Shown here: in pieces, positions 18,472-60,456 of the stretch
Position numbering within the stretch: position 1 is the first letter of the stretch
Layout: each line of letters starts with the position of its first letter
Origin: Escherichia virus TH38
DNA length: 64,000 bases
Sequence record: MT446410.1
Direction: 5' to 3' (one strand)
Notes under the pieces: model-generated
Told to the model about the DNA's origin: nothing
The model's input: only the letters and a program-made list of their open reading frames with translations
The model's database searches: none
Program-made: the position numbers and the translations under genes

Positions 18472-20121
18472 ATGCAACAGACAACTTACGCTCAGGTCAG
18501 AAGTCGTGACCCGAGAAATACTTTCTATGGTGTTAATCCGGGAGCGGCTTCGGCCTCTCCTTATATGGCTAGACCAACTCAGACAGCAGATATTTCTATG
18601 TATCAACGTCCTGCTATACCTGCTGGGCTTTCCTCTCTTGTAGGTCAAACTTCAGTAGATTATCAGAATATGTTGAATCCTGTTCAGAGTAATGGTCTTC
18701 CTTCTGATATCCCAAATGATGTACAACCTCAAGCACAACAGGATGTAACTCTTCCTGAGTTTGAGAATCAAGAAACCATGCAAGCTGCTGGACTTTCTCC
18801 TTCTTCTATTCCTCCAGAATCAGAACCTCTTCCGGTAACACCTCCTACTAAACCGTTAGAAGCTGGTCCTATGGAGTTTACTCCTTCTCAGGTTGAACAG
18901 GCACAAGGTGTGATTAATACTCTTGCTCAAGGACAAGACGCTGGTGATGGAATGACTGCTGCTACTCGTGCTAAAGATCAGGAACGTGTTAACAACGATA
19001 TCTTGCAAGTTGCGAAAGCTAAAGACCCTTCGGAAGCTTGGAACAAACTACAGAAAGAACCATTCTATCAGAACTCTAGTTTCTACACAGGTTTGATGGG
19101 TGTAGGTCTTTCCATTATGTCAGGTAAGTCTCCTATTGAAGCTTTCCAGATTGGTCAGGGAATGGCTAATCAAGATGAGACTAAGAAGCAACTTGAAGCT
19201 AACCGTGATGCTCTGATTGAACAAGGCTTCTCTCAAGACTCGATCGCAGCTGCTATTGCTAACGGAGACCCATCTCTACTGAAGATGAGAGCTGTAGACC
19301 CTGCTCAGAAAGAAGCACTGTATGCTGCTCGTGAAGAACGACAAAATGCTGAATGGGATAGACGTCAACAGATTCAAGAGCAAACTATGCGTGAGCGTGC
19401 TGATGAAACTCGTCGTGCCGCTGAAGAAAGGGCTAACATGAACTTTGAACGTCAGAAAGAGTTGATTGGTTATCGTGATAAGGTTAAGGCTGAACGTGCT
19501 GAGCAAGCTGCTCAGAGTTTTAACTTTAACCCGAAAGAAGTTCGTCTTGCTCAGAACACAGCTGAAGGTACGGTTGCTAAGCAGTGGGCAGAGAAAGGTG
19601 GCCTGTTTAACCAGTCTAACAAAGACTTGGATTTGGCTGATAAGGCTGTTAAGGATAAAGACTATCAGACAGCTCGTTCTGCTTACATGCAGGCTATCAT
19701 GAACTCCGCAAGGGCTGAAATCGGTGCTACTCGTTCTCTTACCGAAGAAGACTTAGGGCACTTTGCAGAAGACCCATCAATCTTCGTTCGTGTTGGCAAC
19801 AAGTTTGCACTGAAATCTGGATGGCGTCCTACTGACTCTGCTCTTGCTTATGCTCGTAAGCAAGCTAACGTTGGTCACACCTCTGCAATGAAAGGTGTTG
19901 CTGATGCTAAGAGAGCTACGATTGAAGCTTACATCGGTTCTGGTATGGATAAGAAGAGAGCTACTGCATTGGTTAACCGTGCAATCCCTTCTGGTGGTTT
20001 CTATGACCCTCTAGGTGTTTTCTCTGAACAAGCAGAAGAAGCAGTTGGTGGTGCAGCAACCAATCCTAAGCTTAATGGTGCTTTATCAGCTGTCGAAGAC
20101 ACTAGCTGGTTTACTCAATAA
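18472..20121 (+). CDS. internal virion protein (coiled-coil)
   Basis: 549 aa; Pro/Gln-rich N-part, charged helical C-part; structural operon. Confidence 0.45.
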   Translation: MQQTTYAQVRSRDPRNTFYGVNPGAASASPYMARPTQTADISMYQRPAIPAGLSSLVGQTSVDYQNMLNPVQSNGLPSDIPNDVQPQAQQDVTLPEFENQETMQAAGLSPSSIPPESEPLPVTPPTKPLEAGPMEFTPSQVEQAQGVINTLAQGQDAGDGMTAATRAKDQERVNNDILQVAKAKDPSEAWNKLQKEPFYQNSSFYTGLMGVGLSIMSGKSPIEAFQIGQGMANQDETKKQLEANRDALIEQGFSQDSIAAAIANGDPSLLKMRAVDPAQKEALYAAREERQNAEWDRRQQIQEQTMRERADETRRAAEERANMNFERQKELIGYRDKVKAERAEQAAQSFNFNPKEVRLAQNTAEGTVAKQWAEKGGLFNQSNKDLDLADKAVKDKDYQTARSAYMQAIMNSARAEIGATRSLTEEDLGHFAEDPSIFVRVGNKFALKSGWRPTDSALAYARKQANVGHTSAMKGVADAKRATIEAYIGSGMDKKRATALVNRAIPSGGFYDPLGVFSEQAEEAVGGAATNPKLNGALSAVEDTSWFTQ

Positions 20122-20141
20122 GACCTAAGTCCTGCCTTCTA

Positions 20142-20150
20142 TAATGTATA
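20142..20150 (+). promoter_or_regulatory. TAATGTATA promoter motif
   Basis: Exact 9-mer 38 nt upstream of ATG 20189. Confidence 0.4.
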
Positions 20151-20188
20151 TAGGGGGTAGGACATTTTTATTTATAAAAGGAGACGTT

Positions 20189-29232: not shown

Positions 29233-29979
29233 TTAGAATGGGCTATCGTTGTCGTCTTCGTAAGTAGAAGCAGGCTCTTTATCAATCGTAGGGATTGAAG
29301 GAGTAGCTTCTTTCTGCTCTGTTTCAGAAGCACGAGTAATTTCACGACCAGCCAGAGGCATGTTCTTAGCGTCATTAGCTTGAGTAAGCAGGTTGCGCTG
29401 GAACGGGAACATCAGTTGATAGGATGCTACGTTCTCATCGGTTTCAGCATACGGTTCGAAGAATACCAGAGGACTACGAGCTTCACCAACTGCTGCACGA
29501 TATTTGGTTGGGATTGGAGAAATGGTCTTGATGGAGTTTTTAACTTCACCAGCTTTGTTAGTGTAAGAGTTAACCAGAATGTTAACAGGCTGACCTAACA
29601 GAACATCCTTGAACCAAGACAGATCACCTTTCAGTGCTTGAATACTTGGGTCAATCATCTTGCAAAGATCAAGAATACCAGAGTTCTTAGCTCGTGGGTT
29701 TACATCATAGCTCTTGAACTGGCAAGCCGGACGTGGTTCTAATGCCTTACCATCGGAATCTTTACCAGTAGCATCAACACCAATCAGCTCGAAAGCTAAA
29801 TCCATACGGAAAGCCGGATTCTTAGGAGTTACTGCTTTGGTCTTCGGGTCAATCCAAGGGTCACGATTGTGAACACCCAAACCTACCACACGAACGATAC
29901 GTGCTTCGTATTCACCATCAGGGATTACATCGTAGTTGGATTTACGGGAAGCAGTTGCGATAGTTGGAATCATAGACAT
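29233..29979 (-). CDS. ssDNA-binding protein (T7 gp2.5-like)
   Basis: 248 aa with acidic C-terminal tail ending ...EDDNDSPF (terminal Phe), hallmark of gp2.5-type SSBs. Confidence 0.55.
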   Translation of the reverse strand: MSMIPTIATASRKSNYDVIPDGEYEARIVRVVGLGVHNRDPWIDPKTKAVTPKNPAFRMDLAFELIGVDATGKDSDGKALEPRPACQFKSYDVNPRAKNSGILDLCKMIDPSIQALKGDLSWFKDVLLGQPVNILVNSYTNKAGEVKNSIKTISPIPTKYRAAVGEARSPLVFFEPYAETDENVASYQLMFPFQRNLLTQANDAKNMPLAGREITRASETEQKEATPSIPTIDKEPASTYEDDNDSPF

Positions 29980-30038
29980 ATTTTAATTTCCTTATTTAAT
30001 TTGAAAGATTGTTGCTCTCTTTGAGCGGTTATGTATAG

Positions 30039-30047
30039 TATACATTA
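30039..30047 (-). promoter_or_regulatory. TAATGTATA promoter motif (- strand)
   Basis: Exact motif on - strand upstream of SSB operon. Confidence 0.35.
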
Positions 30048-30110
30048 CGCTTATACCGATAAGAGTACTATATAATATAAGTATCTTTGGTAGTAGATAT
30101 AACACACTAG

Positions 30111-30119
30111 TAATGTATA
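30111..30119 (+). promoter_or_regulatory. TAATGTATA promoter motif (+ strand, divergent)
   Basis: Exact motif on + strand in same intergenic region, pointing away from SSB gene. Confidence 0.35.
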
Positions 30120-30216
30120 TATTGTATAGCTGATAAAGTTATTGCAGGCTTGTATATTGGGCAATTCACAGAATCCCTTGCAAGTACCGAAGGGCAGGAG
30201 CCACCTGCGAGATAAA

Positions 30217-30280
30217 AATAGAGAATTAAGGAATCCTTGATTTAGGTTGTAGGGACTCCTAGGGACTTTGATTCTCTATT
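30217..30280 (+). repeat. 10-bp perfect inverted repeat (AATAGAGAAT / ATTCTCTATT) enclosing two AGGGACT direct repeats
   Basis: Read directly in 415-bp AT-rich intergenic region. Confidence 0.5.
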
Positions 30281-30395
30281 TAAAAGAATATTAATTACTT
30301 ATTACCTAAATAATTAACTAACTTACTTAAACCAAATTCAAGAATAATAGATAAAAAGATTATTCCTAAGAAAGCTAAAAAGTAAAGGATATAAG

Positions 30396-30560
30396 TTACC
30401 ATTCTAGTAAACCTTTAAAGTTAGTTTGTTCTACTATCCTCTGATAACGAAGATTAGAATCAGCTTGTTTCTTTAACATCTCATTATATTGATCTCTGAT
30501 AGAGTCTTTATGTACTACAGGTTCTTTAAATAATGAGATCTTGTTCTTTTCTTCTTTCAT
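30396..30560 (-). CDS. hypothetical protein (54 aa)
   Basis: Internal ATG start after phosphoesterase stop. Confidence 0.35.
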   Translation of the reverse strand: MKEEKNKISLFKEPVVHKDSIRDQYNEMLKKQADSNLRYQRIVEQTNFKGLLEW

Positions 30561-31029
30561 CAAAGACCTTCCTAATCTCTTGCAGAGAAACAGCTTTATA
30601 GTTAATTTGCTCCATTGATGTACAGAAATATCTCCAATCATCAATTACATGGTTATGAGTATGAGCATAAATATTAAACTTCCCTCTCATTTCATCAGTG
30701 TGAATAGGAATATGAGTTACCCAAAACTCTTTATATTTATAATCACCAGAGATTCTACGGAAGACTTTCATCATATCAGGGAGAAGTTCTAACCTGTCAT
30801 GGTTCCCTAAGACTAGATGCTTCTCTCCTTTTACTTCAGCGATGATATCAAGGGCATACTTTTCAAACACCCAATCACCGGTAAAGAAGATTTTGTCTCG
30901 CTTAGTTACATGATCAAATGCAGCTAGAATTGCTTTGTCATGTTCTTCGATGGTTTTAAATTGCTTACGAAAACTACAGATGTTGCGATGACCTAAGTGA
31001 CCATCTCCTGCAAAATAAACTTCAGCCAT
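30526..31029 (-). CDS. metallophosphoesterase (calcineurin-like)
   Basis: GDGHLGH, FTGDWV, LGNHD, HTHNH motifs. Confidence 0.75.
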   Translation of the reverse strand: MAEVYFAGDGHLGHRNICSFRKQFKTIEEHDKAILAAFDHVTKRDKIFFTGDWVFEKYALDIIAEVKGEKHLVLGNHDRLELLPDMMKVFRRISGDYKYKEFWVTHIPIHTDEMRGKFNIYAHTHNHVIDDWRYFCTSMEQINYKAVSLQEIRKVFDERRKEQDLII

Positions 31030-33288: not shown

Positions 33289-35133
33289 TTAGTGTGTATG
33301 CATCCAGTTAAGTCCAATCTGACAATCAGATGCCAGAGGACATTCCATGTTCAGATACTCGCCAGCTTTCTTAACACAAAGCTCAGTGTGCTCTTTGAGT
33401 TTCTGTACATCATTACGGTTTACTGAGAATTGACCTTCATCGTGCATATCAATTACCTTAGCACAACGAACCTTATCTTTCTCAATCCACTTGTTAAGGA
33501 ACATCATAGCATATTTCATAACAACAGCACCAGCACATTGCAGGAGTGTGTTAAGGGCTTTATGAACCATAACCTTACCAGTGGCATCCCGTCTCATTGT
33601 AATCTTACGACCATCAACTCCAATCAAGTATCCTTGAGCAGCTTTCTCTGTCATACGATCAATGAGGATTGCAATACATGGGTTCTCTGCTAAGAAACGT
33701 GCTCGCATCACTGAACCTTCGTCAGCCCCACCACCTACAATTGAACCAAGCTTAGCATCGCCAGCACCGTAGTTGAATGCATAGATAAATGTCTTAGCGT
33801 TGTCACGAGTAGGAAGACCAGCAAGTTTCTGGTTGTGGGAGTGGATATCACCTTCAAGGAGAATATCACGATACATAATAGCAGAAGCTAAACCACGTTC
33901 TGCCAGAGCTTTCTTAGCTGGGTTGTTCTCTTCAATTGCTTCAGCAAGCATATCCCTACACTCTTTAATGAGGTAGTGAGCGAGCATACGAAGTTCCAGT
34001 CCAGAACCATCATACCCTAAGAATACTTCTTTACCAGCGGGTATGTAATATTTGTAAGCGCCTACAGGTTTGTCTTTCTTCCCCGGCTTACCTTTCTCGT
34101 AAATTACGTTAGTACCTTTTCGTATATAACAACCATCAGGAACAACGTTAGTAATAACGAAAGGACGAGAGTGATCACTGTCTGAGTTATAGTCAGACTC
34201 AAACAAACTGCGACACTCGTGACCAAACAGACCACGGGAGGGAATATTAACCACGATACGATGTTTGAATCGAAAAGTCGGCGTAGCGCAGCTGTTAGCT
34301 TCTGCCGAAAGTTTACCATCTTCGCGTTCCTTTGCTATGAGTCCACTGATAAGACCTAGCCTGTGAGCCGCCACAACGCGTCTCTTAAGCAAACTTCCGA
34401 CACTCCCTAGCTCACCCCCTAACCCTTCTTCAAGAGTCTCCTCGAGGTTTGTAGGAGCTGTAGGCCACTTGTTTGATGTGGCTAGTGCTTTCTTAATCTC
34501 ATCAAACGTTACAGGATTACGGCGATTAGGGTTTAATCCCAAACCAAATACGTAAGCCTTCATATAATTCTTAGTTTTAAACCTGAAATGCTTTTCTAAG
34601 AACTTCTTAATATCAGCGTCAACCATCTCGGCTGTCTGCTTCTGCTTAGCATTGCCTCGCATCCAAGCAGTATACCATGCTTGGTATGTTCCATACTTTC
34701 TCATATCTTTCTTAATTTCGAAAGTATTCCAAGGCTTCTTAGATACGTTAAACTCTGGAGGAAGAAAGCCCTCATCCATAAGAGCTTCTTTAACTCGTGC
34801 ATCTTTCGATGGGTCAAAGTCTACGTATTCGACACAGGTGAAAGCTCCACCAATATCTTCTCTCTTCAGCCCAACCCTATCACAATAGGATTGAGGCCAC
34901 TTCTGTAAAGCTCCAGACTTCTTAAATGGCTTCATATAAGTAGAGCCATCTAATCTCATCTTAGGTAAGAGAGGAATCAGTTCTTTGTCAATATTAACAA
35001 TAATCTCTTTAAGGAGGTGAACATACCACCGAGCATTTCTTCGGTTGAAACTCACTCCGTGCTTCGCTTGCTTAGAGATTATATCAGCGACAGTCATCTC
35101 TGTCAAAAATGGGAGAGCGTCCGGGTTGCTCAC
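33289..35133 (-). CDS. DNA polymerase, family A, polymerase domain only
   Basis: Motif A DGSGLELR, motif B KTFIYAFNYGAG, motif C VIDMHDEGQ; no 3'-5' exonuclease motifs in this ORF. Confidence 0.85.
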   Translation of the reverse strand: MSNPDALPFLTEMTVADIISKQAKHGVSFNRRNARWYVHLLKEIIVNIDKELIPLLPKMRLDGSTYMKPFKKSGALQKWPQSYCDRVGLKREDIGGAFTCVEYVDFDPSKDARVKEALMDEGFLPPEFNVSKKPWNTFEIKKDMRKYGTYQAWYTAWMRGNAKQKQTAEMVDADIKKFLEKHFRFKTKNYMKAYVFGLGLNPNRRNPVTFDEIKKALATSNKWPTAPTNLEETLEEGLGGELGSVGSLLKRRVVAAHRLGLISGLIAKEREDGKLSAEANSCATPTFRFKHRIVVNIPSRGLFGHECRSLFESDYNSDSDHSRPFVITNVVPDGCYIRKGTNVIYEKGKPGKKDKPVGAYKYYIPAGKEVFLGYDGSGLELRMLAHYLIKECRDMLAEAIEENNPAKKALAERGLASAIMYRDILLEGDIHSHNQKLAGLPTRDNAKTFIYAFNYGAGDAKLGSIVGGGADEGSVMRARFLAENPCIAILIDRMTEKAAQGYLIGVDGRKITMRRDATGKVMVHKALNTLLQCAGAVVMKYAMMFLNKWIEKDKVRCAKVIDMHDEGQFSVNRNDVQKLKEHTELCVKKAGEYLNMECPLASDCQIGLNWMHTH

Positions 35134-60381: not shown

Positions 60382-60456
60382 TGGCGTTCCCTCGTGGAAT
60401 CGAACCACGAATAAGAGCTTAGAAGGCTCCAGTTATATCCGTTTAACTAAGGGAAC
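60382..60456 (-). tRNA. tRNA-Arg (anticodon UCU)
   Basis: Hand-folded cloverleaf: acceptor GTTCCCT/AGGGAAC, D-stem GTTA/TAAC, anticodon stem GGAGC/GCTCT with loop CTTCTAA, T-arm CGTGG-TTCGATT-CCACG, encoded CCA. Confidence 0.7.

Follow-up and report, generated by a model that had tools for sequence, protein, structure and literature searches.

The model phage for redirection of the host RNA polymerase by a phage-encoded sigma factor is phiEco32. Its factor is gp36, and the promoters it serves share a single tAATGTAtA element with transcription starting 6-8 nt downstream (PMC4331800; PMC8948821). Six gp36 promoters have been published, before genes 6, 13, 26, 40, 58 and 68 (PMC4331800; Table S3 of PMC8948821), and in these promoters AATGTA is centred at -11.5 (PMC12276001). 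The cryo-EM structure of the P68 open complex shows the C-terminal domain of gp36 in contact with -37G and -34A, and transcription is abolished when these contacts are mutated (PMC12276001). With these six promoters the map is regarded as complete. If the reading we propose below is true, a seventh gp36 promoter, gene-less and antisense, adds a non-coding product to the phiEco32 programme.

A short non-coding RNA transcribed from its own promoter against the surrounding operon, beside the replication genes, and ending at a hairpin is familiar from phage lambda, whose oop RNA has a length of 77 nt, comes from a promoter of the sigma-70 holoenzyme and has an overlap with the 3' end of cII. A role as replication primer was at one time suggested for oop, and it later proved to be an antisense RNA working through RNase III. 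The RNA that we predict would be about twice as long as oop, multi-domain and dependent on the phage sigma factor, and it would stop ~10 nt short of its neighbour, the dispensable gene 41. Orphan promoters are also tied to replication origins, as with phiOL and phiOR of T7 and the middle promoters at ori(34) and ori(uvsY) of T4. These resemble the promoter considered here, which we call Panti, in being phage-specific, in having no gene to express and in the company of a T7-like replication gene set. However, the T7 and T4 origins rely on AT-rich unwinding DNA, whereas here we find a conserved, covarying and folded predicted transcript of ~160 nt and no skew signal.

Transcriptomics has brought to light small non-coding RNAs in virulent phages. 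The four of phage PA5oct (PMC7318152) are similar to the predicted RNA in that they are described as intergenic, structured and phage-encoded, with hairpins at the 5' and 3' ends. There is no sequence or Rfam relationship between the two, and the RNA predicted in phage TH38 differs further in being known from comparative genomics alone and in its modular construction from constant and variable parts.

The region upstream of gene 40

The window analysed here is a stretch of 64,000 nucleotides from Escherichia virus TH38 (MT446410.1). It is a Kuravirus (phiEco32/SU10-like) genome with 98% identity to the SU10/DE5 type; the 2.2 kb around the locus is 96-98.5% identical to Kuravirus phages (DE5, SU10, phiEco32), and 98 phage records match. 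Every gene adjoining the gap lies on the minus strand. An earlier note on this DNA had described a 415-bp intergenic region, which is too long: a minus-strand gene of 35 aa, the homologue of phi32_41, fills 30295-30402, and the non-coding gap is therefore 29980-30294 only. The features of the region are as follows.

29233-29979, minus strand: gene 40 (phi32_40 homologue, 248 aa), with an OB-fold, SSB-like product and an acidic C-terminus, ...YEDDNDSPF
29980-30032, minus strand: predicted 5' UTR of gene 40, 53 nt, beginning at the P40 start (~A30032)
30031-30045, no strand assigned: palindrome ATGTATA-G-TATACAT, its right arm the P40 -10 element and its left arm P40 ~-5 to +2
30039-30047, minus strand: -10-like element TAATGTATA of P40, a known gp36-dependent middle promoter (PMC4331800; Table S3 of PMC8948821)
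30087-30100, plus strand: upstream box TTGGTAGTAGATAT of the putative promoter Panti, 14 bp, at -39 to -26, the same as the P68 box
30111-30119, plus strand: -10-like element TAATGTATA of Panti, with a predicted start at A30126
30295-30402, minus strand: gene 41 (phi32_41) homologue, 35 aa, strongly hydrophobic, MVTYILYFLAFLGIIFLSIILEFGLSKLVNYLGNK, PHROG 24970, outside the RNA element

The neighbouring gene had been called an SSB gene, and rightly so by its appearance: the gene 40 product looks SSB-like, combining an OB fold with an acidic tail that ends in PF. Conserved in the 5' UTR of gene 40 is a small hairpin, GCUC-AAAGA-GAGC (30014-30026), and the Shine-Dalgarno sequence there is AAGGAAA. 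This block is invariant in alignment A1, where KBNP1711 differs in one loop base only. A canonical terminator follows gene 40 at 29211-29194 (-) and, having its own promoter (P40) as well as its own terminator, gene 40 is therefore a separate, self-contained unit. In SU10, WFI101126 and others (e.g., at 1735-2148 of locus L001), gene 40 and its terminator are separated by an inserted gene for an HNH homing endonuclease. The gene 41 homologue is present or absent between close relatives and is missing from many phages that keep the RNA element described below; the gene 41 flank is replaced in ECBP2, Bas88, Bas86, EK010, Paul, XT18 and LAMP.

The motif TAATGTATA is the published -10-like element of gp36 promoters. 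It occurs five times in the window against 0.65 expected (0 of 100 shuffles reached 5), and beside gene 40 it lies in both orientations, at 30039-30047 (-) and 30111-30119 (+), just as had been reported. The promoter reading given to this pair seems sound for both orientations, with the amendment that the minus-strand copy is the known P40 and the plus-strand copy would belong to a P68-like promoter, Panti. In P40, the -10-like element is invariant in the 17 phages of alignment A1, and its start is placed at ~A30032 because AATGTA is centred at -11.5 (PMC12276001). P40 has A at -37 and A at -34, and the A at -37 means that only one of the two gp36 contacts (-37G, -34A) is matched. A palindrome had also been pointed out here, and it exists at 30031-30045; it is best read as the P40 -10 element plus the P40 start region. 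Suseptimavirus phages have it in the shifted form TGTATA-CTA-TATACA, and it is lost in the distant L042/L048/L051 clade.

The plus-strand site has the same design as P68, a gp36/gp79-dependent promoter (PMC12276001) with the same 14-bp box, 10-bp spacer and WAATGTATATA. When all copies of the motif in the window were aligned, Panti and P68 both read TTGGTAGTAGATAT-N10-WAATGTATATA, and the 11-mer core of the box, GGTAGTAGATA, has exactly two copies in the 64 kb, one at Panti and one at P68, with the same spacing. Panti has both -37G and -34A (in the numbering used here), inside the 14-mer that is identical to that of P68. The two differ in that P68 serves a protein gene and has been confirmed in vitro, whereas Panti faces away from every gene and is known from sequence alone. 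Each of the six published gp36 promoters has a middle or late gene downstream, whereas Panti has none. Primer extension and macroarrays yielded only those six, Panti not being among them (PMC4331800; PMC8948821), and an earlier examination of the site in the original phiEco32 papers is possible.

The conservation of Panti was assessed in 29 close loci (three genera and metagenomes); six further, diverged contigs carry variants. In all of the close loci the GGTAGTA core is invariant and stands at a fixed distance from the -10 element. The -10 element itself is invariant in the 17 phage genomes of alignment A1 and is kept in 28 of the 29 close loci, the exception being a metagenome contig (L029) that has TAATATATA in its place. 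Between these boxes the spacer occurs in ~8 unrelated sequence versions, and fixed boxes with a variable spacer are the signature of a two-element promoter. The diverged L042/L048/L051 clade has the box core GGTAGT and the -10 element TAATGAATA, with the spacing off by 1 nt. P40 and Panti are divergent and non-overlapping, and their predicted starts are 94 bp apart. On this evidence, Panti looks like a genuine seventh gp36 promoter.

It had been noticed that no plus-strand gene follows the plus-strand motif, and we agree, having found only TTG-started plus-strand ORFs of 32 and 21 aa. Both are broken in relatives by 1-3-nt indels and a 26-28-nt module swap. A small-ORF reading is ruled out, as indels and module swaps break every frame. 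In ES17-type phages an insertion of ~150 bp with a 47-aa ORF lies between P40 and Panti; it is found at 906-1049 of locus L014 (ES17) and also in L025, L029, L031, L033, L037 and L038.

Structure and conservation of the predicted RNA

We consider it probable, from comparison of the related genomes, that P40 and Panti form a back-to-back pair used by E. coli RNA polymerase with gp36, and that Panti makes a conserved, folded non-coding RNA of ~160 nt. P40 would run leftward from ~A30032 to express gene 40, and Panti would run rightward from A30126, transcribing against all of the neighbouring genes. The parts of this RNA are listed below.

30126-30284, plus strand: predicted non-coding RNA of ~156-160 nt, from comparative genomics (152 to ~187 nt with other module types)
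30126-30142, plus strand: P1, the 5'-terminal hairpin AUAGCU-GAUAA-AGUUAU, its first base being the predicted +1
30147-30188, plus strand: P2, the variable arm (type A here), swapped wholesale between phages
30189-30284, plus strand: constant 3' domain, 96 nt, consisting of GAAGGG, P3, the A-rich linker GAGAUAAAAAU and P4
30194-30208, plus strand: P3, predicted hairpin GCAGG-AGCCA-CCUGC, with an invariant stem and a loop that varies C/A
30216-30281, plus strand: P4, predicted AU-rich hairpin of 66 nt, containing the inverted repeat of the earlier note
30250-30257 and 30260-30267, plus strand: two copies of TAGGGACT in upper P4, the first apical and the second in the 3' arm

A plus-strand RNA of ~150 nt ending at the 30217-30280 stem-loop had been offered as one possibility. 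The P68-like promoter, the covarying hairpin at the predicted +1 and the point at which conservation stops all favour such an RNA, and its 3' end at P4 is the weakest point of our model. Conservation stops at 30284, the foot of P4, in the most divergent records (query positions 7-325). The folding z-score of the whole RNA is only -2.4.

The 5' hairpin, P1, has seven sequence versions; the helix is kept in all of them, and all begin at the predicted +1. Three of these are AUAGCU/AGUUAU, AUAGCU/AGCUAU and AGAGUUA/UAACUCU; three more are AUAGUU/AACUAU, AUAGA/UCUAU and a loop variant of AUAGCU/AGUUAU; the seventh, ACAUC/GAUGU, belongs to the distant clade. Both sides have changed at four of the six pairs, and one pair alternates between G-C, G-U and U-A. 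A constant UUGCA (30142-30146) separates P1 from P2. The P2 arm is of type A in the TH38 window and in most phages and of type B in 12 of the 98 records, with types C and D found in metagenomic relatives. Types B, C and D are unrelated hairpins, alone or in combination, of 33-68 nt, and every type folds on its own. Across these four unrelated modules the P2 closing pair covaries (G-C in 11 sequences, C-G in 6 and U-A in 3), and within type B a change from U-A to C-G separates MN05 from ECBP2. For this analysis we aligned 20 sequences in which the P2 arms had been replaced by a 4-nt linker that kept two closing pairs; 96.7% of the cells are paired. The covariation score was 0.12, against 0.034 in shuffles (0 of 500 reached 0.12) and at most 0.018 with slid partners. 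Compensatory changes that preserve helices, by which a structured non-coding RNA is recognised, are thus present in P1 and in the P2 closing pair.

The constant 3' domain is 91-100% identical to that of Suseptimavirus and Nieuwekanaalvirus phages, for which the gene 40 coding sequence is ~80% identical, and its identity is still ~95% in contigs where that of the gp40 protein has dropped to 71%. The predicted RNA is more conserved than the neighbouring gene 40. As P3 and P4 are invariant, they are uninformative on covariation, and their structure is a purely thermodynamic prediction. P4 has a conserved lower stem of 12 bp (30220-30231/30266-30277) with two invariant G.U pairs; an invariant A-tract precedes the hairpin and a short U-rich tail of 3-4 nt comes after it. 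Its basal A-U pairs and the 3' tail vary, while the A-tract does not. The free energy of P4 is -22.5 kcal/mol on the plus strand versus -17.7 kcal/mol on the minus strand. The 10-bp inverted repeat previously noticed at 30217-30226/30271-30280 has no mismatch and can be lengthened to 11 bp (30216-30226/30271-30281), or to 14 nt at 93%. Of the two AGGGACT direct repeats reported alongside it, the number of copies and the distance of 10 nt are correct, but the unit is really 8 nt long, TAGGGACT; the window contains no copies beyond those two.

Some segments of the constant domain have more than one possible partner. The two TAGGGACT copies shorten together to AGGA in 7 phages, and in another clade the 5' segment that faces them changes from UCCU to UCCCU; both AGG(G)A copies are possible partners of this UCC(C)U segment. 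The 3' arm of P3, CCUGC, can alternatively pair with UUGCA at 30142-30146, the two helices being mutually exclusive, and in three sequences a G-to-A change turns a U.G of this long-range alternative into U-A. These dual pairings of CCUGC and UCC(C)U hint at alternative conformations. There are four conserved GGA motifs in the constant domain (CAGGAG, AAGGAA and two AGGGAC), of which at most one or two are in predicted loops; a sponge of the CsrB/RsmZ type has many GGA motifs exposed in hairpin loops.

We scanned 29500-31000 for Rho-independent terminators, taken to be short, GC-rich stems closed by a loop of 3-8 nt, with five or more U among the next 8 nt, and found none, P4 included. The tail of P4 is AUUUAAAA on the plus strand and AUUUUUAU on the minus strand. 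The real terminators of phage TH38 are short GC-rich hairpins, unlike P4.

Several observations bear on which strand is folded. In each of 21 unique sequences the plus-strand fold is the more stable of the two, and in 10 of these the minus strand is unable to form P1; in the commonest versions of P1 this is because a G.U pair becomes C.A. An A-to-G change in P4 of XT18 gives a third G.U pair, which is tolerated on the plus strand only. A common one-base A insertion is neutral for the plus-strand fold and weakens the upper P4 helix on the minus strand. The local GC skew is positive, as it is in the plus-strand genes of phage TH38.

Function of the RNA and alternative explanations

In the scheme that we suggest, RNA polymerase-gp36 would make the RNA from the middle phase onward, the terminal hairpins P1 and P4 would protect its two ends, and P4 with the short U tail would set the 3' end through weak termination or trimming. 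The invariant 3' domain would serve as a trans-acting, sequence-specific binding surface for a protein or nucleic-acid partner, with P2 as a tolerated peripheral arm. A trans-acting binding surface seems the most likely function because the 3' domain is conserved far beyond the needs of its helices. Provided that the RNA exists, we would give a trans-acting stable RNA a little under an even chance; a cis-antisense or insulator role is a tentative possibility, and a replication primer and any other function are each unlikely. One specific form of the trans-acting model, which we put forward just as tentatively as the cis-acting one, is that the 96-nt domain represents a new class of phage regulatory RNA, made via the phage sigma factor, that would titrate a host or phage protein such as a defence factor, an RNA-metabolism factor or RNA polymerase itself. 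The same proposal would include a possible two-conformation switch and an exchangeable arm that tunes specificity between lineages.

The locus is defined and easily mutated, and it is present in phages used for therapy and in the BASEL collection, whose phages of this group have been described as highly resistant to the defence systems tested.

Among the explanations that dispense with such an RNA acting in trans, a cis-acting insulator or antisense device survives best, with lambda oop, as a matter of general knowledge, for its precedent, and we regard it as rather unlikely. Transcription from Panti would collide with leftward transcripts arriving through gene 41 from P58, P68 and the early promoters, the 160-nt RNA, being fully complementary to the long mRNA between its cistrons, would pair with it there into a duplex that RNase III cuts, and P4 with its A-tract would be a two-way terminator, leaving gene 40 to rely on P40 alone. 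The layout is consistent with this to the extent that the minus strand has no canonical terminator from gene 41 to P40 and that gene 40 is equipped with a promoter and a terminator. In addition, the AUUUUUAU that comes after P4 on the minus strand makes a better U-tract than the plus-strand AUUU does, and it is the A-tract that is invariant while the basal pairs and the 3' tail vary. P4 may also stop leftward read-through, because the invariant A-tract reads AUUUUUAU on the minus strand. However, neither terminators nor antisense pairing need 91-100% identity, a covarying 5' hairpin or a swappable arm. The common A insertion disrupts the upper P4 helix of the minus strand and leaves the plus-strand fold unaffected, and the P4 hairpin does not resemble the genuine terminators of phage TH38.

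A replication origin was the other reading offered in the earlier note, and it gained no support here; in a transcription-primed form it is, in our view, improbable. The orphan transcript would act as an R-loop or primer for a T7-like replisome in the AT-rich DNA just beyond it, and the conserved block would bind replication proteins; were this primer role true, the RNA would show where replication starts in this phage group. A phage-specific promoter that lacks a downstream gene and is neighboured by an SSB-like gene invites this idea, as does the following 100-150 bp, which has the lowest GC content in the neighbourhood (21-24%), and so does the extreme conservation of DNA with two direct repeats one helical turn apart. 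Nevertheless, that AT-rich stretch is gene 41, which is replaced by unrelated sequence in other phages, and the repeats are only two copies of 8 bp, both inside an RNA hairpin, rather than an iteron array. The turning point of the cumulative GC skew coincides with the change of gene orientation at ~25 kb and is not at 30 kb. To judge by the covariation of P1 and of the P2 closing pair, selection has acted on a folded strand rather than duplex DNA, and phages 7-11, GAP52, Privateer and LAh_8 lack the element at the equivalent position.

The near-total sequence invariance of the 3' domain would fit a DNA-level function equally well. Even so, that the block is only a minus-strand 3' end or terminator of the upstream operon, or a double-stranded protein-binding DNA, with the plus-strand TAATGTATA no working promoter, is highly improbable: published promoter lists do omit the plus-strand site, the minus-strand P4 folds too (-14 to -19 kcal/mol) and is followed by a U-tract, and most of the block is without covariation, but the Panti boxes keep a fixed spacing over a variable spacer and match the P68 contacts, a helix begins exactly at the predicted +1 in both clades despite their different sequences, and only the plus-strand fold accommodates the G.U pairs and an A-to-G change.

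We also considered a type I toxin-antitoxin pair with gene 41, which is ruled out: at least seven phages have the RNA element but no gene 41. Nor do the two overlap, as the predicted RNA ends 10 nt short of gene 41.

Distribution, searches and related observations

The RNA element is present in all 98 related phage records (Gordonclarkvirinae) and in diverged metagenomic relatives, and within the window nhmmer finds the constant domain once only, at 30189-30283. The corresponding position in 7-11, GAP52, Privateer and LAh_8, where the gaps are only ~35-105 bp, does not have the element, and an nhmmer search of the loci of these four phages and of PJNS034 (gap ~200 bp) gave no constant-domain match. 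In IMG/VR, 35 nhmmer matches were rejected as chance, all of them being to an AT-rich 18-mer.

There is no Rfam 15 match over 30050-30300, even at E<=10, no tRNA or tmRNA found by ARAGORN in the region, and a sigma-70 promoter scan of the region stayed at chance level. No similarity to the RNA element was found in 5,426 E. coli genomes or in GTDB genomes; the RNA is therefore neither a host mimic nor prophage-derived. Elsewhere in the window, 10-12-mers complementary to the RNA are at or below the shuffle expectation on both strands, which leaves no obvious phage target in the window, and no complementary target was found in E. coli genomes. A literature search for phiEco32 or Kuravirus small RNA, antisense RNA or transcriptome work returned nothing. 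Panti and the RNA family behind it appear to be undescribed in the searchable literature, whereas P40 and the motif were already known.

Elsewhere in the window, the sole tRNA is a tRNA-Arg(TCT) at 60382-60456 (-), and a perfect sigma-70 consensus promoter (TTGACA-17-TATAAT, extended TG) lies at 35078-35106 (-), within the middle-gene region.

Contigs L044-L046 and L054 (Logan), in which gp40 is 63-69% identical, do not contain the element and have instead a different gap of 146 bp upstream of the gene 40 homologue. In this gap AATGTA does not occur, but AGCTA/AAGCTAAGCTAAGCTA tracts are repeated and there is a leader hairpin, suggesting that promoter specificity differs in these phages.

The gp36 promoters of the window fall into two classes by their -35 region, 2563-2606 and 20107-20150 (late) versus 41121-41154 and 30087-30119. 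The late promoters (2598, 20142) share TAAGACCTA at -38 to -30, and P68 and Panti have TTGGTAGTAGATAT in common at -39 to -26; an A at -34 is found in all six aligned promoters. The motif at 20142-20150, probably P26, lies inside a terminator-like hairpin of 15 bp followed by ATTTTTATTT (20129-20163, +), and the terminator of the upstream late operon and the next promoter (probably P26) seem to use the same DNA.
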